Below the pieces are notes generated by a model. That model ran no database searches. It saw nothing but the letters and a program-made list of their open reading frames with translations, and had not been told where the DNA came from. The position numbers and the translations under genes are program-made. This document shows, piece after piece, positions 4,141 through 36,807 of a DNA stretch of 64,000 nucleotides. Origin of the DNA: Candidatus Saccharimonadales bacterium (GTDB lineage Bacteria; Patescibacteriota; UBA1384; 2-12-FULL-50-11); the NCBI GenBank assembly GCA_035480235.1, contig DATIHX010000003.1:85514-149513 (forward strand), in the 5' to 3' direction. Position 1 is the stretch's first letter. Every line of letters begins with the position of its first letter.

Positions 4141-4178
4141 TTTTTGGTATGAAAAGGGCCCGCCTTTGTGGGCGGGCC
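4141..4178 (-). terminator. Rho-independent terminator of the 4206..4901 gene
   Basis: GGCCCGCC/GGCGGGCC stem (4157-4164 / 4171-4178), followed on the minus strand by CTTTTC…AAAAA. Confidence 0.6.
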
Positions 4179-4205
4179 GGAGTGGGGAGTTGGATTGGAT
4201 CGGTG

Positions 4206-4901
4206 TTAATCGATTGAAAATCCGAGAGATTGCAGGTCGAGGAGCGGGATCGCCGCAATACCCTTCTTGTGAAGGATTGGCAGCTTAACACGTCGAGCAT
4301 TTTTCAGAGATGCCTGGTCCCAGGTGCTGAGCACCAAGTTGCAGCGCCACCAACCACCCTCATCGTTGTCGGGATTTACCCAAAGGTAGATACCAACCAG
4401 AGTATTGTGAGGCAGGCTAACGAGCCCGTTTATCACGGCATCGACGTCCATCGCGCCTTCCCGTTTCGAGTCGAGCGGCTTGTAACGCAGCTCGATTTTC
4501 TTCTTCCATTTCGGAGATGCGCCTTGGGGGGCGTTGTTGATGGCGATGTAGGTGGCCGATTCGTACAGGCCGAAGAGGTCTCTCAACTCGCCAACCGTAA
4601 CGGCGCCACCAGCCAGCTCTTCAATCTGAAAGCCTTCGTCGTGAATTGCCACTCCGCCTTTCGTCATCCGGGCATAGGCTGATGGCTTTGTTCCTTCCGC
4701 GGATTTAACGCGAGTGATCTCTGACCGATCCTTTTCCTGAGGAGCGAACAGTGGGAAGGGCGAGGACATCTGTCCGAGACAGCGTGGGATGTCGCACACA
4801 GTAATAAGAGACACTGGTACGATCTTGTTTTCGGCGAAGAATTGGGAAGCGTTTTGAGACGCATTGTTGGTTTGAATACCGGCCATAAGGCTACTGTTCA
4901 T
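4206..4901 (-). CDS. Hypothetical protein (231 aa, orphan)
   Basis: Long ORF with GGAGGAG 7 nt upstream of the ATG. No recognisable motif. Confidence 0.6.
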   Translation of the reverse strand: MNSSLMAGIQTNNASQNASQFFAENKIVPVSLITVCDIPRCLGQMSSPFPLFAPQEKDRSEITRVKSAEGTKPSAYARMTKGGVAIHDEGFQIEELAGGAVTVGELRDLFGLYESATYIAINNAPQGASPKWKKKIELRYKPLDSKREGAMDVDAVINGLVSLPHNTLVGIYLWVNPDNDEGGWWRCNLVLSTWDQASLKNARRVKLPILHKKGIAAIPLLDLQSLGFSID

Positions 4902-9716: not shown

Positions 9717-11768
9717 ATGGGTCTTTTTTCAAGGCGGCGGCGCTACGGCTCCCGTCGCAAGAAGCGGGTGCCGACAATTTGGGATAATTTAGTTTGGGCG
9801 GTTGAGCCCGACACCGCTCGGGAAATTATCGCCGTTGTCCTGATTATCTTTGGCGCGCTGTTTGCCCTCGGCCTCTTTCATTTGGCCGGCAATTTCGGCG
9901 AAGTGTTTTTTAAGCTGGCCGGCAATTTGTTCGGCGTTTTGAAATTTGTGGTGCCGTTTGTCTTTTTATACACCGGCATTCGCTTGCTAATCGTCAAATC
10001 CGAAGTCCTTCGGGCCACCAGTGTTATCGGCGTCGTTTTGCTATTTCTCTTAATCCCCGCTCTGTTTAACGCCCAGGGCGGCTCGATCGGTATTGGCGTG
10101 GCTAACGTTTTTACCTCGATTCTCAGTAAAGTCGGCGGCTTTATCGCGCTCTTCGGCGCTACCATCGTCGCCTTGCTGCTGGCCTTTAACGTTTCGCTGC
10201 GCAGTTTGTATGAGCGCTTCCAATTCGGCGGTAAAGAGGGCCAGGGCGTCAAGATTAACGAGAACCCGCGGGTGCCAGTGCGGACTATGAAGCCAGAGCG
10301 CGGCGGTATGGGGACGGCCCTGGTGGCGGGCTCCGAAAACTGGCAGTTCCCGTCGCTGGATTTAATCGACTACTCGTCTTCCACCAAGGCGGAAGCTGGC
10401 GACATCGGCAAAAACGTTGAGGTTATTAAGAAGACTCTCAAAGACTTTGGCGTGGAGGTGGCGATGAGCGAAGTCAACGTCGGCCCAACGCTGACGCAGT
10501 ACACCTTGAAGCCGAGCGAAGGCGTCAAACTGAACACGATTACGGCCCGCTCCAACGATATCGCCCTGGCCCTGGCCGCTCACCCGATTCGGGTCGAAGC
10601 GCCGATTCCCGGCAAGAGCCTGGTTGGTATTGAGGTACCCAACAAAGTGGCAGCGATGGTTAGTTTGCGCGAGGTTTTGGAGGCGCCGGAATACAAAGAC
10701 GTTACATCGAATTTGGCCTTGGCCCTCGGCCGCGACGTCGCCGGCAAAGTGATGGTGGCTGATCTCAAAAAAATGCCGCACTTGCTGATCGCCGGCGCCA
10801 CCGGCAGCGGTAAATCGGTTTGTATGAACGCCATTTTGGTCAATTTATTGTATAAAAACGCGCCGTCGGACTTGCGCTTAATCCTGATCGACCCGAAGCG
10901 CGTCGAATTTGTGGAGTACAACGGCATCCCCCACTTGCTGACTAGCGTGGTGACCGAAACCGACAAGATTATTTCGACGCTGCGCTGGGCCGTCGCCGAG
11001 ATGGAACGCCGCTATCAAACCTTGGCGTCGCACAACAAGCGCAATATCGACGCCTTCAACGAGGCGATCCCGGACGGTGAGCAAAAGATGCCGTACATCG
11101 TGATTGTGATCGACGAATTAGCCGATTTAATGACCCAAGCCGCTAACGAAGTGGAAGCCTCGGTGGTCCGGATCGCCCAGATGGCCCGGGCCGTCGGAAT
11201 GCATTTGATCGTCGCTACCCAACGGCCGAGCGTGGACGTCATTACCGGTCTGATTAAAGCCAACATCCCGGCCCGAATCGCCTTTGCCGTCGCCTCGATG
11301 CCGGATTCGCGGACGATTTTGGACCAAGGCGGCGCCGACAAATTGCTCGGCCGCGGCGACATGCTGTATTTGAACTCCGATCAGCCGCAACCGCGTCGGG
11401 CTCAGGGCGTTTTCCTCAAAGACAAAGAGATTAAAGCCGTTACCGATTGGGTCAAATCCCAAGCCCCACCGGTCTACGACGACACTATCACCACCTACCG
11501 TTCGGCCGGCCACGGCAGCCACAGCGGCCTGGGCACCGGCGGCGACCACGATGGTGGCGGTGACGACGAGCTCTTCAACGACGCCCGCGATTTATGTATT
11601 CAAGCCGGCAAAGCCTCGGCTAGTTTGTTGCAGCGCCGCCTGAAAGTCGGCTACGCCCGCGCCGCTCGTCTCCTTGATCTGCTGGAAGCTGAGGGCATTA
11701 TTGGCCCAGCCGACGGCGCCAAACCCCGCGATGTCCTAGTCGCCCCCGACGACTACCAGGGATCGTAA
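9717..11768 (+). CDS. ftsK: DNA translocase FtsK/SpoIIIE
   Basis: N-terminal TM helices, Walker A GATGSGKS, …IVIDELADLM…, …ATQRPSVDVITG…, and a C-terminal gamma winged-helix (LLQRRLKVGYARAARLLDLLE). Confidence 0.95.
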   Translation: MGLFSRRRRYGSRRKKRVPTIWDNLVWAVEPDTAREIIAVVLIIFGALFALGLFHLAGNFGEVFFKLAGNLFGVLKFVVPFVFLYTGIRLLIVKSEVLRATSVIGVVLLFLLIPALFNAQGGSIGIGVANVFTSILSKVGGFIALFGATIVALLLAFNVSLRSLYERFQFGGKEGQGVKINENPRVPVRTMKPERGGMGTALVAGSENWQFPSLDLIDYSSSTKAEAGDIGKNVEVIKKTLKDFGVEVAMSEVNVGPTLTQYTLKPSEGVKLNTITARSNDIALALAAHPIRVEAPIPGKSLVGIEVPNKVAAMVSLREVLEAPEYKDVTSNLALALGRDVAGKVMVADLKKMPHLLIAGATGSGKSVCMNAILVNLLYKNAPSDLRLILIDPKRVEFVEYNGIPHLLTSVVTETDKIISTLRWAVAEMERRYQTLASHNKRNIDAFNEAIPDGEQKMPYIVIVIDELADLMTQAANEVEASVVRIAQMARAVGMHLIVATQRPSVDVITGLIKANIPARIAFAVASMPDSRTILDQGGADKLLGRGDMLYLNSDQPQPRRAQGVFLKDKEIKAVTDWVKSQAPPVYDDTITTYRSAGHGSHSGLGTGGDHDGGGDDELFNDARDLCIQAGKASASLLQRRLKVGYARAARLLDLLEAEGIIGPADGAKPRDVLVAPDDYQGS

Positions 11769-12560
11769 ATGTCTCATAACCCAGAATTAACCGGCATGGA
11801 GAATTTCTCTTTTTCGGAAGGGGTAATTTCAGCAAGCGAAATAAAGCTATTAAAAGATACCGCTGTGCATTTACTACCCACTCTTCAGGAGTGCATCAGA
11901 CGACGGGAGCAGATTGGGGATCTTAAGATTCACGAGCGTTACCCGGAAATAAAAACTCGCCTGACCGATGCTTACATTAGCCAGCATGGAAGCCAACCAG
12001 TTGGCGAAGCGGCCAGCGCAATTTACGTAGCTACTCAAAACGAAATATACGTCCCACTTGATAACGCACTTTTCCCCTTGGTTGAAGAGATGGAGGTTTA
12101 TCTAGATAGCCTAAATATCTGGAAACATAAGCTAACAACTGTTAATCAAGAAGCTCGCATTGAGAAATTCCCCCAACCAGAGAAATTTGATTCACTTTAT
12201 TATATAACTCCGGAAGGCGTGAGCCTCAGGCTAAAGCGCAGGCTTGTTCGAGACGAGGATGTACATGGGTTAGTTCAGCCCTATATGGAAAAGATATTTT
12301 TCAAAAACTACCAAAGCGAAGAAGTAAAAGAAGTCCCTGAGTTAGGGCTATCGGTTATTGAATACACTACAGCCGGTTTTGCAAAGTTGATGACCGGAAG
12401 CGCTGAGTTAGAGAAATACGAGTTTGCGGCCATTTCTCCACTGGCAGACCAAGAAAATTACCAGCAGCAAGTCACGTTAGATAACGGCAAGATCGTTACG
12501 CCGCCGGGACCTCTGATCGAGCATGGTGGGGATAATATTAACTATCTAAGTTCGCTTTGA
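11769..12560 (+). CDS. Hypothetical protein (263 aa, orphan, lower G+C)
   Basis: The ATG directly abuts the ftsK TAA (TAAATG). It is visibly AT-richer than its neighbours. No motif recognised. Confidence 0.55.
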   Translation: MSHNPELTGMENFSFSEGVISASEIKLLKDTAVHLLPTLQECIRRREQIGDLKIHERYPEIKTRLTDAYISQHGSQPVGEAASAIYVATQNEIYVPLDNALFPLVEEMEVYLDSLNIWKHKLTTVNQEARIEKFPQPEKFDSLYYITPEGVSLRLKRRLVRDEDVHGLVQPYMEKIFFKNYQSEEVKEVPELGLSVIEYTTAGFAKLMTGSAELEKYEFAAISPLADQENYQQQVTLDNGKIVTPPGPLIEHGGDNINYLSSL

Positions 12561-12594
12561 CGCCTCTCCAAAAGCGGTGTAGCGTGGATTCTGC

Positions 12595-13311
12595 ATGACC
12601 GGTTTTGTCACGAAAAAAATTAGCCGGCAACGGAGCCTCGGCGCCAATTTTAAGGCCGCCCGGACCAAGTTGGAGTGGACGCTCGAGCAAGCTGAAGTCG
12701 AAACCAAAATCTGCGCCAAATATTTACAAGCCCTGGAAGACGGCAACTACGCGTTGCTGCCGGCCGAGGCCTACAACATCGGTTATGTCCGGGGTTACGC
12801 CCGCGAGCTCAAACTCGATCAAGAAAAATCGGTCCAGGCCTACCGCGAAGAGCGCTCGCGCGAGCACTTTAGCCCCACCGCCAAACCAACGCTAATTTCG
12901 CCTAACCGGGCTCGCAACAATCACTTTTTCGTTACCCCCAAACTCATCGGTGCCGTCGTCGCCCTGGTTCTTTTTGGCGGCATGGTTACCTACGTCGCAT
13001 TGCAACTTCGAGCTTTCAGCCAGCCGCCGATGTTGGTAATCAGTAACGTGCCATCAGAACTGACTAGCACCAAAGATACGGTCGCTCTTCAGGGAAAGAC
13101 GACGGCTGGGGCAGTGGTCGCCATTAACGCCGAGCCGATTTTAGTGGCCGCCGACGGCAGCTTCAACCAAACCATTTCGCTGGCCCCAGGCGTTAACCAA
13201 ATCACCATCAAGGCGACCAGCCGGGCCCAGCAGGCTAGCCAAAAGACCATCAGCGTGCTTTACAACCAGCAGGGGCTTGCCAGCCTGCCCCAAAGTGGTA
13301 CGAAAGAGTAG
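12595..13311 (+). CDS. Helix-turn-helix membrane protein, RodZ-like
   Basis: N-terminal HTH (LGANFKAARTKLEWTLEQAEVETKICAKYLQALEDGNY…LPAEAYNIGYVRGYA), a single TM helix, and an extracytoplasmic beta-rich C-terminus. Confidence 0.65.
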   Translation: MTGFVTKKISRQRSLGANFKAARTKLEWTLEQAEVETKICAKYLQALEDGNYALLPAEAYNIGYVRGYARELKLDQEKSVQAYREERSREHFSPTAKPTLISPNRARNNHFFVTPKLIGAVVALVLFGGMVTYVALQLRAFSQPPMLVISNVPSELTSTKDTVALQGKTTAGAVVAINAEPILVAADGSFNQTISLAPGVNQITIKATSRAQQASQKTISVLYNQQGLASLPQSGTKE

Positions 13312-13433
13312 CTGGGAAGAAGTTTTCAATTCTCAGTTTCCAGTTTCCAAACAGGGAAATTTGGAAGATTATCTAGTTGCAATTTTGTTCGGTAATTGTA
13401 CGCTTATTATTGAAGCTATAAAGGAGACTAATC

Positions 13434-14519
13434 ATGGCCAAGAAGAAAGACGATACCGACAACTTAAGTAAAGCCGAGAAACAGGCCAATACTTCTGGGC
13501 GCGAGTCGGCCTTGAAGGCGGCGCTCGACCAAATTGAAAAGCAGTTCGGTGCCGGCTCGATTATGCGGATGGGCGAGCAGACCCACTTGAATGTGGAAGT
13601 TATCTCTACCGGCTCGTTGGCGCTCGACGTCGCCCTGGGCGCCGGCGGTTTCCCCCGCGGCCGGATTATCGAAATTTACGGCCCGGAGTCTTCCGGTAAA
13701 ACGTCGCTCGCCCTTTCCGCTATCGCCGCTGCTCAAAAAACCGGTGGCTTAGGCGCCTTGGTGGACGCCGAACACGCCTTCGACCCGCAGTACGCCGCCA
13801 AACTTGGTGTCGACTTAGACCAGCTGCTTATCTCCCAACCCGATACCGGCGAACAAGCCCTGGAGATTGTGGAAACCTTAGTGCGCTCTAACGCCGTGGA
13901 CGTGATTGTGGTGGACTCGGTCGCTGCCCTGGTGCCGCGGGCCGAGATCGAAGGCGAGATGGGCGACAGCATGATGGGTGTGCAAGCTCGGTTAATGAGC
14001 CAAGCCTTGCGCAAACTGACCGGCGCCGTTTCCAAGTCCAAAACCGCCCTCATTTTCATTAACCAAATCCGGATGAAAATCGGCGTGATGTTCGGCAACC
14101 CGGAAACCACCCCCGGCGGTAACGCGCTGAAATTCTACTGTTCGGTTCGCCTGGATATCCGCCGAGCCGAGCAAATTAAAGACGGCGAGACGCCGATCGG
14201 TAACCGCGTTCGGGTAAAAGTGGTTAAAAATAAGATCGCGCCGCCGTTCCGCGTCGCCGAATTTGACTTAATGTTCGACTCCGGTATATCTAAAGAAGGG
14301 GACCTGCTGGAGCTTGGCGCTAAGATGGGCATCATCGAAAAAAGCGGCTCCTGGTTCCAGTACAACGAGATGAAGCTTGGGCAGGGACGGGAGGCTGCCA
14401 AAGCGTTTCTCAAGGGGGACGTGGCCCTGGCCAAAGAACTAGAGGCGAAAATTAGAAGCGGCGAAGCCGCCTCTAACCCTATTGTTGAAACGCCCGAGGA
14501 AACTGACGAGGAAGAATAG
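13434..14519 (+). CDS. recA: Recombinase RecA
   Basis: Canonical RecA sequence: [19 protein letters not shown], …[20 protein letters not shown]…, …[29 protein letters not shown]. Confidence 0.98.
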
Positions 14520-15834: not shown

Positions 15835-16584
15835 ATGAGGCGGCTACTTTCGGCTCGGCAATGGTTGATCTTGGGGATAGCAGTTTTAGTGATCGGCGGC
15901 GGAGTGTTAGTGGCGCGACGCTTGGGCTACCTCCACGCGGCCGGCGTCTTGGCCGGTGATCCGATCACCTGTGACCAGGCGACGGACCAGTGGCTGGTCG
16001 TCCATAAAGATACGTTGGATAGTGTCACCGGCGATGTCTGCGACGAAATCCGGGTTAAGACTCGAGAAAAATTTGCCTTCGCTCACTTTAATGGCCAGTG
16101 GCGCCACTGGCTTGGCTTCTCTGGTACGCTCCTTCGTCACACCCTGGAGGAACAGAAAACAGAAAAAACGGTTGTCACTGGTACCGCCGATGCCAACGGC
16201 AACTGCTCCAAAAACGTCACCACCACCGTAACAAAGTTTCACTACACATCGGTGACCTATAGCGTCAGTGTGGAAAATGGTATATATACTTTCGACCAAG
16301 ACAGTTTCTTGCGCTACCTCCACTTGGCTTACCCAGACATTTCCTCTTCGGCGACGCTAGCCGAGATCGCTAACCTTAAAGGCATTGGTTGGCTCGATAA
16401 TTTGGTTATGACCTACATTGAAAAGTTTATTTATAGCGGCACCGGCATTAATAAATTTAAGTTTGACCCGAGGAAGTTTAGGGATTGCGGCAGCCGAACA
16501 ACTAAAGATAACCCGCTAGTGATTCTCGACCCCAGCAAGTGCCCGTGCAAGCCAAGCGGTGGCGGTGGTAGCACCTCCGGCTAA
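15835..16584 (+). CDS. Membrane-anchored hypothetical protein with a Cys-containing ectodomain
   Basis: N-terminal TM helix (WLILGIAVLVIGGGVLV) and a C-terminal GGGGSTSG tail. Confidence 0.55.
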   Translation: MRRLLSARQWLILGIAVLVIGGGVLVARRLGYLHAAGVLAGDPITCDQATDQWLVVHKDTLDSVTGDVCDEIRVKTREKFAFAHFNGQWRHWLGFSGTLLRHTLEEQKTEKTVVTGTADANGNCSKNVTTTVTKFHYTSVTYSVSVENGIYTFDQDSFLRYLHLAYPDISSSATLAEIANLKGIGWLDNLVMTYIEKFIYSGTGINKFKFDPRKFRDCGSRTTKDNPLVILDPSKCPCKPSGGGGSTSG

Positions 16585-16610
16585 CGAGAACGTCTGCTAC
16601 ACTAAATTAA

Positions 16611-18986
16611 ATGGCCGGAGGAAAAACGAAAGAAGTGGTTTGGTTCGCCGAAGTCACCAAGGACGACATTCCGCTGGTTGGCGGCAAGGGGGCTAACTTA
16701 GGCGAAATGAGCCGCGCTGGTCTGCCGGTGCCGCCAGGCTTTATCGTCACGAGTGCGGCTTACTTTAATTTCGTGAAAGCTAAGGGAATCGACAACTATA
16801 TCCGCAAATGGACGAAAGACTTGGACCCCGAAGATTCCAAGGCACTCAATAAAATCGCTGCCGAACTCCAAAAAGCGATGAAAGAGTTCAAGCTGCCAGA
16901 GGCGCTTGTCAAAGAAATTGAAAAAGCCTACGACGAGATGCATCAAGGACCGGTGGCCGTTCGTTCCTCGGCAACGGCAGAAGATTTACCAGGCAACTCG
17001 TTTGCCGGCCAACAAGCGACATTCTTAAACGTCGAGGGAAAAACCCAGCTAATTAAGGCGATCCGGGAGTGCTGGGCCTCACTCTTTGAGGCCAGAGCGA
17101 TTTACTACCGAACCGTCAACAAGTTCGACCACTTGTCCGTTGGTATCGCTGTGCCGGTGCAGAAAATGGTCCAGAGCGAAGTCTCGGGTATTATGTTTAC
17201 TGTTGATCCGGTTGATTCGGATCTAACGAAAATTGTGATTGATGCCGGTTTGGGGCTGGGTGAAGCGATCGTTTCCGGTTCAGTGACGCCGGACCATTAC
17301 GTTGTGGCCAAAGACGACTTCAAAATTGTTTCGAAAGAAATCGGCGCCCAAGATTGGCAGATCATTCACGACGGCAAAGACAAAAACAAGCACGTCAAAC
17401 TAACTAAAGAACAAAAAGAGGGCCAAAAACTAACCGACGAACAAATAGTCACGCTGGCTAAGCTCGGTAAAAAAGTGGAAGACCACTACAAAAAGCCGCA
17501 AGACACCGAGTGGGCTTTTGAGGGCGGCAGTTTTTACATGGTTCAAGCCAGGCCGGTGACGACCTTGAAGGGCAAATCCGAAACCCTAAATCCTAAATCC
17601 GAAACAAACTCCAATGCTCAAAATCCAAATATCGAAACTGAAGCGGCCGATTTATCTAAGGCCGAGGTGATTGTGACTGGCGCTGGCGCCTCGGTGGGGA
17701 TGAAATCCGGCCCGGTCAAAATTATCCACAAACCCTCAGAAATTGACCAAGTGAAAATTGGCGACGTTTTGGTAACCGAGATGACGAGCCCCGACTACGT
17801 GCCAGCGATGAAACGGGCAGCCGCCATCGTGACGGACACGGGGGGTCGCACCAGCCATGCCTCGATCGTGAGTCGAGAATTGGGTATCCCCTGCGTGGTT
17901 GGCTCTGGCACTGCCACGACCGCGCTGAAAACCGGCCAAATTGTGACCGTCGACGGTACCAGCGGTAAAGTTTACAAAGGCAAAATTGATCCGCCAACTG
18001 GCGGAGCCGGCAATCTTTCAATCCCCACCCAAGCCGTTGTTGGCCGGGCCACCGGCACGCAAGCCGTGATGACGGTGCCGGTCACCGCTACCAAAGTCTA
18101 TTTGAACTTGGCCGAGCCGGATAAAGCCGAGGAGTACGCCCAGCTGCCGGTCGACGGCGTCGGCTTGCTCCGAGCCGAGTTTATTATCGCCGGCATCGGC
18201 GAGCACCCCCGGGCGATGATGGCGGCAGGCCGGGCTAAAGAATACGTTCAAAAACTGGCCGCCGGAATTTCCACGATCGCCCAAGCCTTTCACCCCCGGC
18301 CGGTCGTGTACCGCTTCACCGACTTCAAAAGTAACGAATATAAATCGCTCAAAGGTGGTGACAAGTATGAGCAGCCGGAAAATAACCCGATGATCGGTTT
18401 CCGCGGGGCCTCCCGTTACATCGCTGAACCAGACGAATTTGCCTTGGAAATCGAAGCGATCAAGCGCGTTCGCGACGGCTTGGATCTAAAAAATTTGCAC
18501 GTGATGATCCCCTTTGTTCGAACTGTCGATGAGTTTCTGAAAGTTCGCGATCTGATGCACCGCGACGGCCTCAAGCAAAGCTCGGATTTCAAGCTCTGGA
18601 TTATGTGCGAAGTGCCGTCGGTGGTGCTGGAACTGCAGCGCTACATCGACGAAGGCATCGACGGCGTCTCGATCGGCTCCAACGACTTGACGCAGCTAAC
18701 CCTCGGCATCGATCGCGACTCGATGAAACTCGCCTCAGAATTTGACGAGCGTTACCCGGCTGTTTTGAACTCAATTTTGCACGTCGTCCGGGTTTGCCGG
18801 AAAAACCACGTCACTTGCTCGATCTGCGGCCAAGCGCCCAGCGTTTACCCGGAAATTACCGAAGCGATGGTCCGGGCCGGCACAACCAGCGTTTCCGTCG
18901 CTCCCGACGTCGCTGTTTCCACCCGCAAACTCATCGCCTCAGTTGAGAAAAAAATCCTCCTTGCCAACGCTATCGATAATGGGTAG
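16611..18986 (+). CDS. ppsA: Phosphoenolpyruvate synthase (pyruvate, water dikinase)
   Basis: N-terminal ATP-grasp (VGGKGANLGEM…PVPPGF), phosphohistidine swivel (GGRTSHASIVSRELGIPCVVG), and a C-terminal PEP-utilising TIM barrel (…SIGSNDLTQLTLG…). It carries a low-complexity linker insert. Confidence 0.9.
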   Translation: MAGGKTKEVVWFAEVTKDDIPLVGGKGANLGEMSRAGLPVPPGFIVTSAAYFNFVKAKGIDNYIRKWTKDLDPEDSKALNKIAAELQKAMKEFKLPEALVKEIEKAYDEMHQGPVAVRSSATAEDLPGNSFAGQQATFLNVEGKTQLIKAIRECWASLFEARAIYYRTVNKFDHLSVGIAVPVQKMVQSEVSGIMFTVDPVDSDLTKIVIDAGLGLGEAIVSGSVTPDHYVVAKDDFKIVSKEIGAQDWQIIHDGKDKNKHVKLTKEQKEGQKLTDEQIVTLAKLGKKVEDHYKKPQDTEWAFEGGSFYMVQARPVTTLKGKSETLNPKSETNSNAQNPNIETEAADLSKAEVIVTGAGASVGMKSGPVKIIHKPSEIDQVKIGDVLVTEMTSPDYVPAMKRAAAIVTDTGGRTSHASIVSRELGIPCVVGSGTATTALKTGQIVTVDGTSGKVYKGKIDPPTGGAGNLSIPTQAVVGRATGTQAVMTVPVTATKVYLNLAEPDKAEEYAQLPVDGVGLLRAEFIIAGIGEHPRAMMAAGRAKEYVQKLAAGISTIAQAFHPRPVVYRFTDFKSNEYKSLKGGDKYEQPENNPMIGFRGASRYIAEPDEFALEIEAIKRVRDGLDLKNLHVMIPFVRTVDEFLKVRDLMHRDGLKQSSDFKLWIMCEVPSVVLELQRYIDEGIDGVSIGSNDLTQLTLGIDRDSMKLASEFDERYPAVLNSILHVVRVCRKNHVTCSICGQAPSVYPEITEAMVRAGTTSVSVAPDVAVSTRKLIASVEKKILLANAIDNG

Positions 18987-28531: not shown

Positions 28532-28620
28532 CGGAAGGGGAGGGATTTGAACCCTCGATGCCCTTGCGGGCATACGACATTTCCAATGTCGCGCAATAAG
28601 CCGGGCTATGCGACCCTTCC
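28532..28620 (-). tRNA. tRNA-Ser (anticodon GGA)
   Basis: Cloverleaf read by hand: acceptor GGAAGGG/CCCTTCC, anticodon stem CGACA/TGTCG with loop TTGGAAA, a long variable arm (GCCCGCAAGGGC), T-arm GAGGG-TTCAAAT-CCCTC, and discriminator G. Confidence 0.9.
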
Positions 28621-31733: not shown

Positions 31734-31783
31734 ACCCTTCTCTCGTCGCCTCCTTGTGCTACAGTGGGTAGAGATGGAGGGAC

Positions 31784-32110
31784 ATGGCACTACCAAGCCT
31801 TGAAGAAATATTAGAAAAAGACATTTTTGAACTCCTCGGGGTGGAAGGAGCCAGCGACGACCGCAAAAAAGCCTTGCTCGACCAAATGACTCAAACGGTT
31901 GAGCTAAGGGTTGTTAACCGAGTAGCAACAATGCTCAGCGAGAATGACGCCGAAAAATTCCAAGATATCGCCGAAACTGGTGACAGCCAAAAGCTCGTTG
32001 ACTTTCTAGTTGACAAAGAAATTGACCTGCCGCAAATTGTCAGCGAAGAAGCCACTAAGCACCGAGTGGAAGTAGTGGAGCTGGTTAAGCTCGCTGAAGA
32101 GAAGGACTAA
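31784..32110 (+). CDS. Hypothetical small acidic protein (108 aa)
   Basis: Its stop overlaps the start of the next gene (TAATG). No motif confidently recognised. Confidence 0.55.
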   Translation: MALPSLEEILEKDIFELLGVEGASDDRKKALLDQMTQTVELRVVNRVATMLSENDAEKFQDIAETGDSQKLVDFLVDKEIDLPQIVSEEATKHRVEVVELVKLAEEKD

Positions 32111-34992
32111 TGCGCGACGACCGCGCCGAGATGCCGCAACCAGAGGTGACCGGCCCCGAGCCGACGGTATCGACTGACGCTGTTGCGCTGGAAGCGCCGC
32201 CGCTCGCGCCCTTAGTTGAGGCACCCCAACCAACCGAAACAGTTGCTACAACTCCACCGCCAGTTTCCCAACCAGCCCGTCGATTGAATACCCGTGAAAA
32301 ATTTGAGCAAGAACTGGAAACAGTGCGAGCGGCCCTGCCAGACCGGCTGGCAACATCTGAAGCGGAAGTAAAATTCCTGAAGGAGCGTCTAGCTGAAGCG
32401 CCAAATTCGGAAGCTAAAGCGATCGTTCAAAAGGAAATTGATTCGGCTAAAGAGAAGCAAGCAAGTGTATTCCGCGATTACGCCGGTGATATTCTCCACC
32501 GAGCCGAACGCGGCGAAAAAATTACCGAAAACGAGTGGCTAATCGTCGCCCAAGATTACTCGGCCAACGCTGAAAAATCGGCCGGCGCGGAATTTTTTCT
32601 AAAACGACAAGGCTTCGAAACCTTTGAAAAAGGGATGAGAAAAGTTGGCTTAACGACAGCTCGGGGCGAGGCGTTAACAGTTCAATTGGAGAAATCAAAG
32701 GCCCCATCATGGCTCAAAGAGCATATTAATAAAGCCGGCTGGTCAGCGGCCACTTACGCCTTGGCCAGTTGTTTTTTGCCGGTTTCTGCCTTGGCTTTTG
32801 CCAGTAGTATCGGCGGCGGCATTATCGGTCGGTTGGGTGGGGAGTGGCTGCGTGGCCATGAGCTTAGCAAGGTTAGAGGCGAAGGCGATAACAAATATCG
32901 CCTCAATGAAAAAATAATGAACGACGCGCTTAGCCAAATATTTTTAATGAAAACAGAAGCCGAAAAGGCTTTGGCGGCGGCCAAAAATCCGAATGAACGC
33001 GCTCAAGCTCTGGGTAATTTGCTCTCAAAAATAGGGACTGCCGAGATTAAGGATATCGCCACCTATCAAAAAGTTGAGAAAACGGCTGCCAAATGGAAGG
33101 CTATTGGCGGTTTTCTGGGTTCAGTTGGCGTCGGTTCGCTGGTTAACCATTTCTTTGTGACTGGGCATCAGCTTGCGGCGGAAGTGGCTAAAGCCAAGGC
33201 GGAGGGAATTCATATTTTTCACGACGCCGCTGGCGCCCACATCACTGCCGATCCAACGCAAGGGCACGTTGTTAAAGAATCGCTCGATGGTTTCTGGCGG
33301 GCCGTTGTAAACAAAAAAGATCTTGGCGATCTGGCCACTTCGGTTAGTCAACACAGCGCTGGGGTTAATAATTACTTTCACGCCTATCTTGGCGATCACG
33401 TTGGTTTAGTTAGTCAACAAGCTAGATATGGTCAGGAAATGGTTCACGCCTTGGTTCGCGACCTACCAGCAAATTTGGCTCGGCCCGAGGCCGCCCAAGC
33501 GGCCACCGATTCATTCTTAGGCGCTTCGGTTAACAGCGCCATTAACGAATTAGTTCGCCAAACATTTATTAAGTCGACGCTGGTAATGGTTGGTGCGGCG
33601 GCTGTTAGTGAATCAGCTTTTCTGCGCTCCGATACTGCTAAGGTTTCGGCCGAACGGCTGCGGGCGGAGAACCTGCCGTTGATTAATGAACTCGAGGCTG
33701 AAGCCCTGTTTCAGCGTCAAAAAGTCAAGCCCGAAAAAGAGCCCAAGCCCAAAAACGAGCGCGAACGGTTAGAAAAACTCGCTCGCAAACTCCACGTCGA
33801 GTTACCGGAAAGTCCGCACGGTTTCGAAGAGGGTTGGTATAAACAGCCACACTTACTTCAGGATCGATTTACATTAGCAAAATTGCCGCGTTGGCCACTT
33901 ATAGGCTCTGATGGTAAGAATATTGTGGAAAACGGCCAAGAGAAACGTGATGGTGTGGCCGAGGTTGACGTAGATAATAATAAGATTGTCGTCGTTTCAA
34001 AGCGGCTGGACGGCAGCTACGACCATCACACTATGAAAATAGACGATTTTTTACGGACGCATGGCAAGCCAAAGATCGCTACCCCTTCCCAGGCGGCTCC
34101 TACCGAGAGTCGACCCCCCCAAGAACAACCCCGCCGACCTGGCGTGGCCGAACGTCTCGACCAACTCCAGTTTGATAACAACGATATAATGAATGCAGTC
34201 TTGGAGGAAGTGCGCCACGGTACACCACTGGCTGAAGATATTAAAAATGCCCCTACTAGCGCCGCTCTTTCCCAGGGTTTGTACCGGATTGTTCGCACAC
34301 TAGCCGAAGGCTGGGATGGCCTTGACGAAGCGACCCGTCGCGGTAACGCCACCTTTAAGTTTGAGGCAATCCGCGAAGGCGACCGGAACGTCACCGCGAT
34401 CACCCTGTATAATCCAGATAACACCAAGGCGATATTGCGCCTGAAACGGGCTGGCGATGGGTATAGGATTACCCTAGAGGACGCCGATGGGGCCTTACTG
34501 GGCGTTCGTAACGAGCGGCCAATTACCGTTGGCCCAGTGGCGGCTTTCTTGCAAGAATTAACCGAGCGCTTCCAAGCTTTGGACGATATCGCCCCTCCCG
34601 CCCCGCCCGCTCCACCTGTTCCGGCACCAGCTCCAACACCACTGCCGCCTGCTCCAGCTCCTGTGCCGACCCCGCCCGTTCCTGCGCCGAGACCACCGGA
34701 CGTCGAGCCAGACGAACAGAATGAAGAGGAGATTTTTAGCCAGGCCGACTTTGACGAACACGATGCTATTCAGCCAATGGCTGAAATCCCGCCAGCTATT
34801 TGGAGTTTTATCACCCGCAGTTTGCCCGACCCGATCGATCCCGAGTCCGGTCTCATTCGCTACCGTAACGCGGACGTTGCTAATGAAAAAATTACGCTCA
34901 TTAATGCTGCCGGCCGGGAACAGGAATTCCGACTGCCATTTATTCAAGGAATTATCGACCAATTGGAAACCACTGAAGACGAGGAAAGTTAG
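32110..34992 (+). CDS. Large orphan protein (960 aa) with hydrophobic segments and a proline-rich linker
   Basis: Uninterrupted ORF with hydrophobic stretches (…ATYALASCFLPVSALAFASSIGGGIIG…, …AIGGFLGSVGVGSLV…) and PPAPPAPPVPAPAPTPLPPAPAPVPTPPVPAPRPP near the C-terminus. Confidence 0.65.
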   Translation: MRDDRAEMPQPEVTGPEPTVSTDAVALEAPPLAPLVEAPQPTETVATTPPPVSQPARRLNTREKFEQELETVRAALPDRLATSEAEVKFLKERLAEAPNSEAKAIVQKEIDSAKEKQASVFRDYAGDILHRAERGEKITENEWLIVAQDYSANAEKSAGAEFFLKRQGFETFEKGMRKVGLTTARGEALTVQLEKSKAPSWLKEHINKAGWSAATYALASCFLPVSALAFASSIGGGIIGRLGGEWLRGHELSKVRGEGDNKYRLNEKIMNDALSQIFLMKTEAEKALAAAKNPNERAQALGNLLSKIGTAEIKDIATYQKVEKTAAKWKAIGGFLGSVGVGSLVNHFFVTGHQLAAEVAKAKAEGIHIFHDAAGAHITADPTQGHVVKESLDGFWRAVVNKKDLGDLATSVSQHSAGVNNYFHAYLGDHVGLVSQQARYGQEMVHALVRDLPANLARPEAAQAATDSFLGASVNSAINELVRQTFIKSTLVMVGAAAVSESAFLRSDTAKVSAERLRAENLPLINELEAEALFQRQKVKPEKEPKPKNERERLEKLARKLHVELPESPHGFEEGWYKQPHLLQDRFTLAKLPRWPLIGSDGKNIVENGQEKRDGVAEVDVDNNKIVVVSKRLDGSYDHHTMKIDDFLRTHGKPKIATPSQAAPTESRPPQEQPRRPGVAERLDQLQFDNNDIMNAVLEEVRHGTPLAEDIKNAPTSAALSQGLYRIVRTLAEGWDGLDEATRRGNATFKFEAIREGDRNVTAITLYNPDNTKAILRLKRAGDGYRITLEDADGALLGVRNERPITVGPVAAFLQELTERFQALDDIAPPAPPAPPVPAPAPTPLPPAPAPVPTPPVPAPRPPDVEPDEQNEEEIFSQADFDEHDAIQPMAEIPPAIWSFITRSLPDPIDPESGLIRYRNADVANEKITLINAAGREQEFRLPFIQGIIDQLETTEDEES

Positions 34993-35002
34993 GTAAAAAA
35001 AT

Positions 35003-35031
35003 TCCCTACCGTCACGTGGACGGTAGGGTTT
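35003..35031. terminator. Terminator hairpin between convergent genes
   Basis: CCCTACCGTC-acgtg-GACGGTAGGG followed by TTTT, with an A-run upstream. Confidence 0.8.
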
Positions 35032-35047: not shown

Positions 35048-36043
35048 TTAGTCGCCGGCGGCCTGATCGGCGCCAGGTGCCGCTGCAGCTGGCGCTGGCG
35101 GCTGATGGGCGTAGTTGTTGATCACCACGCCACCAGCCGCCGCGGCTGGGTTCGTTCTGCCGGTTGTCGGCGGCGTTCCCCAGTTGTGATTTTCGTGCGC
35201 ATATCCGGTTACGTTGCCGTTGCCGTCGTAAATGCGGTTAAACATCCCAGCTGAACCATAGTCGCTCTCGGGATCTTTGAACTTCATGGCTGTTCGGACT
35301 GACGCGATATCAACGTCTACGGGGGAGGCGGCACCGTTTGGCCCGCAACCTTGACGATTGCCATTCGGCAGGCAGCCGCGCATTCGCAGGTCGTGCTCCT
35401 TGTTCTGGGCCATCACTTGGATGATGCGCACGATGACGAAATGAAAGAAGCAGTAGAGCAGGGCAACGGCTAAAATTGTGCCGAATACCCATGCTGCGAT
35501 TACCCATCCACTCATAGTATTTTCCTCCGGCCGTTCAGCCGCTTGACCCTGATTGGGGTCGGTCGTGGCCGGCGTGCCGGCAGCTGCCCTCCCGAGGAGG
35601 GGCGACAGAAATCCTTTCAACGCCGCCGAAATGTTGTTCAGCGCTATTTGGGCGGCGATGTGTTGGTCGATATACCCCTTGGCCTTGTAATCGTAGCCAG
35701 CCATCATCCGGTGCGCCGCATTGTCGGCTTTGGGATAATGGTTGACGACTGTAGTCTGGCGGATCACTTTCGTGCCGCCATCCCTGCCGTCTTGGCCATC
35801 GCGACCCGTATCTTCCTTCTCGCCTTTCAGCAATGTTGGGTTGGGCGGCGCGGACTTTTGGCCGGAACCGCCGGCGCCTTGTTGGTCGACGTTGTCGCCA
35901 CCGGTGGTGGCCGTGCCAACACCGTGGTCAACATTGTTTTGGCCCCTGGCTTGGTCGTCGAAGTTGCCGTTGCTTTTGCCGTTCTGACCCATCGCCATGA
36001 CGGCGAAGGCCAGGATGACGACGATTGTCAGAACTTTTTTCAT
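35048..36043 (-). CDS. Secreted/membrane protein, Gly/Asn/Asp-rich, with one central TM helix
   Basis: Signal peptide MKKVLTIVVILAFAVMAMG, a short GXY run (GRDGQDGRDG), a TM helix WVIAAWVFGTILAVALLYCFF, and an Ala/Pro-rich tail. Confidence 0.6.
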   Translation of the reverse strand: MKKVLTIVVILAFAVMAMGQNGKSNGNFDDQARGQNNVDHGVGTATTGGDNVDQQGAGGSGQKSAPPNPTLLKGEKEDTGRDGQDGRDGGTKVIRQTTVVNHYPKADNAAHRMMAGYDYKAKGYIDQHIAAQIALNNISAALKGFLSPLLGRAAAGTPATTDPNQGQAAERPEENTMSGWVIAAWVFGTILAVALLYCFFHFVIVRIIQVMAQNKEHDLRMRGCLPNGNRQGCGPNGAASPVDVDIASVRTAMKFKDPESDYGSAGMFNRIYDGNGNVTGYAHENHNWGTPPTTGRTNPAAAAGGVVINNYAHQPPAPAAAAPGADQAAGD

Positions 36044-36423: not shown

Positions 36424-36738
36424 TCAGACGGGAAGGGCGGCTTCGGCTTCGGCCAAGTCTCTGTCAGCAGCTGCAAGCTGGACCCGCAACTCCATATTCT
36501 CCGGATGTTTCCGGAAATCTGAAGATATTTGATCTCTCTTGTGCCGGCAGGCAAAAAACTTGCGAATCTCGTCGCCGGGCATTAAAGCGATTTCCAGGGC
36601 ATCAGCGATCTGCTCGTTTTGTGGAAATTGGCTAGCGGCGTGCTGAAGCCATTTTGCGTCCCATGGCCGTTCGCCCGCCATCATCTTGTCGATAGCATCG
36701 TAAAACGGTGCGGTGGCTCCTGATCCTTTGGCAGACAT
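36424..36738 (-). CDS. Hypothetical protein (104 aa)
   Basis: AGGAGGAAGG lies 4 nt upstream of the ATG (MSAKGSG…). Confidence 0.5.
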   Translation of the reverse strand: MSAKGSGATAPFYDAIDKMMAGERPWDAKWLQHAASQFPQNEQIADALEIALMPGDEIRKFFACRHKRDQISSDFRKHPENMELRVQLAAADRDLAEAEAALPV

Positions 36739-36807
36739 TTTCCTTCCTCCTAAGAAGTGCAATAACTTGCAATAAGCCTAGCAGAGACTGGCTAATAAGT
36801 CAATGGG

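Follow-up and report, generated by a model that had tools for sequence, protein, structure and literature searches.

The question raised by the locus described here is what a very large protein and its small companion, encoded directly downstream of rpoD, contribute to a bacterium of the Candidatus Saccharimonadales. The two genes lie in a 64,000-nucleotide stretch of contig DATIHX010000003.1 (assembly GCA_035480235.1, positions 85,514 to 149,513 of the forward strand), referred to below as the window, and they encode proteins of 108 and 960 amino acids (aa). About half of the genes of ultra-small episymbiotic bacteria carry no assigned function, and lineage-specific families of this kind are common in their genomes. 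A first-pass annotation of the window had described the pair as an orphan, completely unassigned operon, and the larger product as a membrane-associated envelope protein that might take part in host interaction. The comparisons presented below define the pair as a conserved module with a recognisable small partner, the Pfam family DUF5663, and they lead us to favour, tentatively, a reading in which the large protein is a membrane-anchored modular scaffold that would lie mostly in the cytoplasm and work together with the DUF5663 protein.

The two genes and their junction are as follows (window coordinates).

31784..32110, plus strand: small gene, 108 aa, an ATG-initiated open reading frame (ORF) encoding the DUF5663 protein
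32110..34992, plus strand: large gene, 960 aa, an ORF encoding an N-terminal conserved, predicted membrane module followed by lineage-variable C-terminal modules
32108..32112, plus strand: TAATG stop/start overlap, with TAA at 32108-32110 and ATG at 32110-32112 and one base common to both

The one-base overlap had been noted from the outset, and it supports translational coupling of the small and large genes as a tightly coupled two-gene unit. Equivalent junctions range from -1 to +3 nucleotides (nt) in eight measured loci and, in the remaining neighbourhoods, called-gene coordinates yield a gap of 1-10 nt. The 960-aa ORF is a real gene because 2.9 kb of open frame in DNA of 52% G+C is not explicable by chance and because intact homologues exist elsewhere. 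Neither gene has a paralogue elsewhere in the window.

The extent of the large-protein family was determined by an exhaustive phmmer search, with the 960-aa query, of 1.84 billion cluster representatives at E <= 1e-3. This yielded 28 representatives including the query itself, 22 of them at E <= 1e-10. Homologue E-values extend from 1e-185 down to 1e-4, and the 27 further representative clusters remove the protein from the category of orphans in which it had been placed. Contigs carrying DUF5663 homologues each revealed an ORF of 929-1208 aa directly downstream, showing 30-40% identity to the window protein (E 3e-43 down to 0). Few extra loci were gained by scanning genome and metagenome collections. 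Judged by these searches, the family is real, small and confined to Patescibacteria-type metagenomic bins.

The pairing of the two genes proved to be invariable. It had been suggested that co-occurrence of the 108-aa and 960-aa families be examined, and a DUF5663 gene was found immediately upstream of the large gene, at a distance of 10 nt or less, in each of 14 distinct neighbourhoods (the window and 13 others). The pair was intact in every related neighbourhood examined, rather than missing or decayed, and the arrangement is retained in relatives at the edge of detection, namely P0035 (E = 5e-12), P0036 and P0040 (E = 8e-5). The usual gene order is dnaG, rpoD, DUF5663, large gene and a convergent collagen-like gene, with lysS slightly further away, and in the window the neighbours are dnaG, rpoD, lysS and rmuC. 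At loci L007/L008, L012 and L018, and on the P0036 contig, rpoD is replaced as the immediate upstream gene and the pair is kept. By these comparisons the pair constitutes a conserved autonomous two-gene module of a narrow group of Saccharimonadales/Patescibacteria.

The encoded proteins evolve at very different rates. Relative to the window, sequence identities are 82-91% for rpoD, 66-80% for lysS, 59-69% for dnaG, 39-75% for DUF5663 and 27-40% for the large protein, values which indicate that the constraint on DUF5663 is comparable to that on a housekeeping enzyme and that the large protein is diverging fast. Such a pattern would fit a constrained partner seated on a conserved module inside an otherwise plastic scaffold.

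Assignment of the small protein to DUF5663 (PF18908), which alters its earlier status as unassigned, is based on a score of 23.8 bits against a curated cut-off of 23.7 (E = 6.8e-5), with residues 18-89 aligned to profile positions 5-76 of 84 (72 of the 84 positions). The protein is named DUF5663 at NCBI, and all 12 of its close homologues (60-75% identity) are annotated as PF18908. It is acidic (pI 4.4), carries neither a signal peptide nor a hydrophobic segment and is presumed to be a helical, cytoplasmic protein. No mention of DUF5663 was found in the literature searched; we know of no function or structure for the family and, to our knowledge, the obligate association of its genes with that of a large, predicted Gly-zipper membrane protein has apparently not been described before. 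In the most distant locus, L018, a second ORF of 119 aa (4154-4513) lies just 5' of the DUF5663 gene; it shows no BLAST similarity to DUF5663.

The architecture of the large protein was examined using two AlphaFold2 (AF2) models, generated from 23- and 20-sequence alignments with a mean pLDDT of 69, in which confident and unconfident parts are sharply divided. The conserved part of the protein extends over residues ~85-655. The following parts were distinguished, all on the plus strand.

32110..32283, plus strand: predicted disordered N-terminus, residues 1-58, Pro/Glu-rich with 22% Pro, net charge -5, pLDDT 32-44
32284..32724, plus strand: helical region, residues 59-205, pLDDT 82-96
32734..32829, plus strand: bilobed, Gly-rich, uncharged hairpin, residues 209-240, defined from the alignment of 20 members, pLDDT <50
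33100..33165, plus strand: second hydrophobic Gly-zipper helix, residues 331-352, predicted transmembrane (TM) in->out, with G334 and G337 conserved
33205..33321, plus strand: beta-meander with a His/Asp motif, residues 366-404, four strands, pLDDT ~75, within the predicted outside loop 353-485
33565..33624, plus strand: third, weaker hydrophobic helix, residues 486-505, predicted TM out->in, Kyte-Doolittle value 1.35
33646..33720, plus strand: conserved helix, residues 513-537, S-x-E-R-L-R-x-D/E-N-x-P-L-I-x-x-L-E-A-E-A, joining the membrane module to the C-terminal modules
33757..34074, plus strand: beta-rich domain, residues 550-655, pLDDT 75-91, present in about a dozen family members
34171..34587, plus strand: alpha/beta domain, residues 688-826, pLDDT 73-91, present only in the four closest relatives (P0015-P0018)
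34588..34698, plus strand: Pro-Ala/Val spacer, residues 827-863 (IAPPAPP...APRPP), 37 residues, 57% Pro
34699..34992, plus strand: acidic C-terminal alpha/beta domain, residues 864-960, and stop codon, net charge -19, pLDDT 83-92

The compositional elements that had been read directly from the translation all reappear in this scheme, including the Pro/Glu-rich N-terminus, the Pro-Ala/Val linker and the acidic C-terminal domain, which is predicted to be folded. What had been described as coiled-coil-like segments correspond to two long antiparallel helices (residues 59-96 and 100-133, pLDDT >90), and the three hydrophobic Gly-rich stretches are present, with hydrophobicity peaks at residues 221, 332 and 487.

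In the alignments residues 1-58 are variable and poorly conserved. Residues 59-205 contain, in addition to the two long helices, shorter helices and a small beta-hairpin, and G135, D149, S157, A158, G168 and F169 are invariant or nearly so. The hairpin that follows has the family consensus SGGxSxAxxGxIxLLGGPVSWAxxxxGxAGGAxGRL; over 20 members it averages 33 residues, with no charged residue and about 10 Gly, and it is flanked by K/R-rich sequences (3.4 and 4.2 per 15 residues), while P224, G236, G237 and R241 are invariant or nearly so. Residues 241-330 are modelled as confident helices. The second hydrophobic segment carries 5.0 K/R on its N-flank versus 1.6 on its C-flank and the third, which ends in a conserved Glu, 1.2 versus 3.7, both averaged over the same 20 members. 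Between these segments lies a loop (residues 353-485) which consists of the beta-meander and an indel-prone stretch. The meander shows the motif G-[IV]-R-I-x-H-D...H-x-T-x-D...G-H-x-V...D-G-x-W-R, in which H386 is invariant and G366, D372, V388, D393, W396 and D404 are nearly so, and some relatives carry DxDxDG in place of the His/Asp motif. That the meander binds a metal can only be conjectured from these residues.

The beta-rich domain at residues 550-655 was detected directly in P0015-18, P0023, P0027, P0028, P0031 and P0033, and in P0030/P0032 via P0023/P0031. For the alpha/beta domain at residues 688-826 there is no Pfam match. At the position of the spacer, relatives carry Pro-rich linkers of differing sequence, and the window protein shares both its spacer and its acidic end domain with P0015-P0017. 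The possibility that the three C-terminal domains of the window protein are repeats of one another was rejected on internal comparison.

The large protein has no N-terminal signal sequence and its N-terminus is hydrophilic. The charges flanking the hydrophobic segments obey the positive-inside rule across the 20 members and, on this basis, we infer an N-in/C-in topology in which the bulk of the protein would be intracellular and ~135 residues would lie outside, an assignment that is not secure. It draws further support from the missing signal peptide, from the lack of an export signal in DUF5663 and from the PP2C and GrpE domains found at the C-terminal position in relatives (see below). The positive-inside fit would require that segment 1 is re-entrant from the cytoplasm, that segment 2 crosses in->out and segment 3 out->in, and that both termini are cytoplasmic, and the data are consistent with this arrangement. 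AF2 confidence falls exactly at the three hydrophobic segments and is high on both sides of them, as would fit elements that are not packed in a soluble fold. Conservation of the uncharged Gly-rich segments, which extends to their positions in the family, makes the membrane association proposed originally plausible.

Sequence beyond residue ~655 is swapped between lineages, and a few of the swapped modules are recognisable. P0021 carries a PP2C domain at residues 623-839, P0025 shows a PP2C match at 666-770 together with a sub-threshold SpoIIE match at 846-876, and P0035 carries a complete GrpE domain at residues 1290-1451; the other family members carry unrelated sequence beyond this point. 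PP2C and GrpE are typically cytoplasmic families. In the window protein there is no match to PP2C (PF00481 / PF13672) even at E <= 1, and none to GrpE (PF01025) by HMM. A degenerate PP2C domain in its C-terminus was considered and discarded, since profile comparison with the PP2C-bearing relatives assigned it a probability of 0.2%. The layout as a whole, in which a cytoplasmic output domain comes after a membrane module, is that of membrane-anchored PP2C phosphatases of the SpoIIE, RsbU and PstP type, and P0021 and P0025 carry the same output domain. However, the membrane modules of SpoIIE, RsbU and PstP are unrelated in sequence to that of the window protein, these phosphatases have no DUF5663 partner, and the window protein lacks PP2C.

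No known homologue of the large protein emerged beyond its own family. Pfam, NCBIfam, PHROGs and PADLOC gave no assignment, and relaxed Pfam scans of 20 core sequences revealed no recurrent weak family. Sequence and profile searches of the PDB produced low-complexity linker matches only, including spurious ones to E2 acetyltransferase linkers which arise because of the Pro-Ala/Val spacer. Structure prediction followed by Foldseek, a check recommended in the first-pass annotation, gave no identifying match: neither the full-length nor the core models matched an entry of the PDB or of a viral library at E <= 1e-3, and the top rows were generic long-helix proteins with TM <0.2 (XaxB, PaxB, IpaD, apolipoprotein A-IV and a tape-measure protein). 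Confident homology to a characterised family, which would have overturned the original description, was not encountered in these searches and, in keeping with the earlier statement that no catalytic motif could be recognised, no known catalytic family or fold matches the protein.

Viral and mobile origins were also considered. A phage tail tape-measure protein with an upstream chaperone was rejected on the grounds that there is no PHROG match and that the neighbours are dnaG, rpoD, lysS and rmuC; the best viral fold matches have E-values of 2.5e-3 to 5e-3 and TM below 0.1. A phage, plasmid or other mobile origin was likewise rejected, tblastn being negative in phage and plasmid records and nothing being found in viral contigs. 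PADLOC defence models matched neither protein of the pair, nor the product of the convergent neighbour, at E <= 0.1.

Taken together, these results lead to the following proposal. Translational coupling would keep synthesis of the DUF5663 protein matched to that of the large protein, and the DUF5663 protein would most likely bind the conserved N-terminal module as a fixed stoichiometric partner or chaperone. The disordered N-terminus and the helical hairpin of the large protein would lie inside the cell, and the Gly-zipper re-entrant hairpin would dip into the membrane from the cytoplasmic side. The outside loop of ~135 residues carrying the His/Asp beta-meander would come next, with a transmembrane helix at either end, after which the conserved linking helix would lead into a series of cytoplasmic modules subject to exchange between lineages. 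The exchangeable modules of the window protein would be three small domains, with the rigid Pro-rich spacer placed before the acidic last one. The conserved module may therefore serve to hold differing cytoplasmic activities at the membrane, possibly under regulation via the outside loop, which would amount to a scaffold or signalling role.

Several observations weigh against this proposal. The hydrophobic segments are marginal (Kyte-Doolittle 1.35-1.77) and Gly/Ala-rich, and the third contains charged residues. Rapid divergence of the large protein would also suit an exposed protein, and the combination of a rigid Pro-rich spacer with a small domain at the end is typical too of envelope-spanning proteins such as TonB and of wall-spanning regions. 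The C-terminal domains of the window protein have no assignable fold. Moreover, of the ~31 family proteins compared with Pfam only 3 carry PP2C or GrpE, and the domains mark the location of the C-terminus in those three and not the role of the window protein.

Before turning to other readings, the signals that surround the pair, and its convergent neighbour, need to be described.

31757..31765, plus strand: extended -10-like motif TGCTACAGT, read from the sequence of the 50-nt rpoD-DUF5663 spacer, a candidate promoter
31776..31781, plus strand: Shine-Dalgarno-like GGAGGG, 2 nt 5' of the small-gene ATG
35004..35028, both directions: terminator hairpin with a 10-bp stem (7 G-C pairs), a 5-nt loop and T-runs on both strands
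35048..36043, minus strand: conserved convergent neighbour, 331 aa, with a signal peptide, a short collagen-like G-x-y stretch and one TM segment

A motif of the TGnTAnnnT type occurs ~7-30 nt 5' of the DUF5663 start codon at L001, L003, L004, L011, L013 and L014, and the GGAGGG ribosome-binding site recurs at L004, L011 and L014. Given the conservation of these two elements in the rpoD-DUF5663 spacer, the pair probably has its own promoter, located right after rpoD. Transcription may also read through from rpoD, since the interval preceding the small gene has no predicted terminator.

At the other end of the unit, the hairpin starts 12 nt 3' of the large-gene stop codon, and the convergent gene ends 20 nt to the right of it. 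A strong terminator had been annotated here; the hairpin is indeed present, but the minus strand has the longer T-run, 7 T as against 4 T on the plus strand, and the hairpin is best described, from its sequence, as a bidirectional terminator common to the large gene and the convergent gene. An Rfam scan of the window detected nothing structured in the pair locus, the sole match at gathering score being a tRNA gene at 28532-28620 (minus strand), just upstream of dnaG.

The 331-aa neighbour is encoded by a fast-evolving gene, and its tail carries the semi-conserved motif D-I-A-x-x-R-x-A-M. Homologues occupy the same convergent position at L001 (11328-12347), L004 (7098-8165), L009 (3298-4260), L011 (4583-5536), L013 (10397-11374) and L014 (9561-10628), and at L012 (4984-5562) the homologue lies directly 5' of DUF5663 on the same strand. 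The collagen-like protein is possibly the module's third component, and the PP2C-type loci L007 and L010 lack it.

Other genes near the pair vary between loci. At the two loci that carry PP2C, a ~430-aa protein of no recognised family takes the place of the collagen-like neighbour (L007 8966-10276 and L010 4543-5832), and the two ~430-aa proteins share 40% identity (E = 2e-108). The window carries an ORF of ~104-112 aa (36424-36762, minus strand) in the interval from the collagen-like gene to lysS; L011 and L014 have homologues of it in the equivalent position (E = 6e-6 and 2e-4), and its only family match is a weak one to TPR_20. A few kb downstream of the pair at L012, the GrpE-fusion locus, features at 11606-14119 and 16315-16755 comprise two TraG/TrwB-like coupling-ATPase genes (DUF8128 and TraG-D_C) and a sigma-70 region-4 protein; nothing comparable was found near the window pair.

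Four other readings of the large protein were weighed, with a little room left for explanations other than these, and the one that survives best is the original suggestion of a host-interaction envelope protein. It holds that this is a surface protein of the episymbiont, with the C-terminal region, the Pro-rich spacer and the acidic domain projecting outward to the host. The very fast divergence relative to housekeeping neighbours, the variation of C-terminal modules by lineage, the rigid spacer with its small terminal domain and the adjacent conserved gene for a collagen-like membrane protein with a signal peptide would all suit such a role. There is also a likeness to TonB and ZipA, in that a 37-residue spacer containing 57% Pro precedes a folded domain of ~97 residues at the C-terminus; in the window protein, however, the anchor is in mid-protein, the tail is predicted to be cytoplasmic rather than periplasmic, and there is no TonB_C or ZipA_C match. 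We consider an envelope location unlikely because the large protein has no signal peptide, because the flank charges of the 20 members predict an intracellular C-terminus, and because cytoplasmic PP2C and GrpE domains occupy the equivalent position in relatives. The DUF5663 partner, moreover, carries no export signal and the locus resides in a stable housekeeping neighbourhood.

Slightly less probable, in our view, is a soluble or peripheral cytoplasmic scaffold in which the Gly-rich segments act as glycine zippers for oligomerisation or packing, the protein being a coiled-coil organiser of, for example, division or the nucleoid. The segments are only marginally hydrophobic and rich in Gly and Ala, long helices make up much of the protein, the genomic context is a housekeeping one and the cytoplasmic fusion domains are compatible with such a scaffold. 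On the other hand, segment 1 of each of the 20 members is a run of 33 consecutive uncharged residues between basic flanks, the flank charges fit the positive-inside rule, and AF2 leaves the segments unpacked (pLDDT <50).

The third reading, that of a translocated effector with DUF5663 as its chaperone, we regard as improbable. DUF5663 would then maintain the large protein in a secretion-competent state, the Gly-rich hairpin would insert after export into a host membrane, in the manner of Inc proteins or alpha-pore-forming toxins, and the C-termini would be effector domains. The gene immediately 5' always encodes a small acidic partner, a conserved N-terminal helical module is combined with a variable C-terminus, and a bilobed hydrophobic hairpin is located between long helices. 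In layout only, the pair resembles type VII LXG toxins with their Lap partners and chaperone-effector pairs, which share the gene order, the size and acidity of the partner and the conserved N-terminus with a polymorphic C-terminus. Unlike these, the pair has no immunity gene or toxin domain and its housekeeping synteny is stable; a Pfam scan of the window protein and 22 relatives revealed no LXG, WXG or toxin match. Long helices flanking a bilobed, Gly-rich, uncharged hairpin are likewise seen in ClyA/XaxAB-type toxins, chlamydial Inc proteins and C19orf12, and one relative gives a weak C19orf12 match (E = 7e-4), but the large protein is two to three times larger than these and has extra domains. 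XaxB and PaxB are among the top Foldseek rows, but these matches are not significant (E 0.7-1.0, TM 0.09-0.16), and an alpha-pore-forming toxin of the ClyA/XaxAB type was rejected on this ground.

The genomic surroundings give the effector reading little encouragement. TraG/TrwB-like ATPases occur within 1 kb at L012, whereas the window, like most loci, has no secretion genes in the vicinity of the pair, and no immunity-like gene follows the pair on its 3' side, where the convergent gene for the conserved membrane protein is located. GrpE is not an effector-type domain, the stable rpoD/lysS synteny is unlike that of effector islands, and no phage, plasmid or defence-system matches were obtained.

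Least probable is a sigma-linked regulator, in which a membrane-anchored device would employ DUF5663 as a small acidic factor binding sigma or RNA polymerase, a role that would account for the location of the pair right after rpoD: the pair does follow dnaG-rpoD at a distance of 39-144 nt in the window and at L001, L003, L004, L011, L013 and L014, rpoD is also nearby on the P0036 contig, and PP2C in two relatives recalls partner-switching, but the pair stays together and leaves rpoD at L007/L008, L012 and L018, it is preceded by a promoter-like motif of its own, neither STAS nor any anti-sigma kinase or sigma-binding family was detected, and linkage within a single clade may simply be inherited gene order.

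The preferred reading of a membrane-anchored, mostly cytoplasmic scaffold can be extended to include the collagen-like neighbour, which we take to be a type I membrane protein. The DUF5663 protein, the large protein and the collagen-like protein might together form an undescribed, Patescibacteria-specific transmembrane machine, in which a collagen-like stalk at the surface and the His/Asp loop would respond to contact or to envelope state, the membrane module would relay this to the exchangeable modules, whether phosphatase, chaperone cofactor or unassigned domains, and DUF5663 would act as a universal adaptor. We consider such a system improbable. Should DUF5663 genes throughout the radiation precede partners of this kind, diverged past detection with a single sequence, it would represent a widespread system that has been missed by annotation.

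An apparent orphan has thus become a defined family with an obligate partner and a topology open to testing, and DUF5663 has acquired its first concrete genomic association. The natural swaps of PP2C and GrpE indicate on which side of the membrane the business end of the protein is likely to lie, and the results as a whole shift the focus away from a host adhesin and towards a cytoplasmic, membrane-proximal role and the binding of DUF5663 to the large protein. The practical value of these results will be modest until a function is shown. For the large functionless fraction of genes in ultra-small episymbiotic bacteria, conserved multi-gene modules such as this one offer the most tractable way in.

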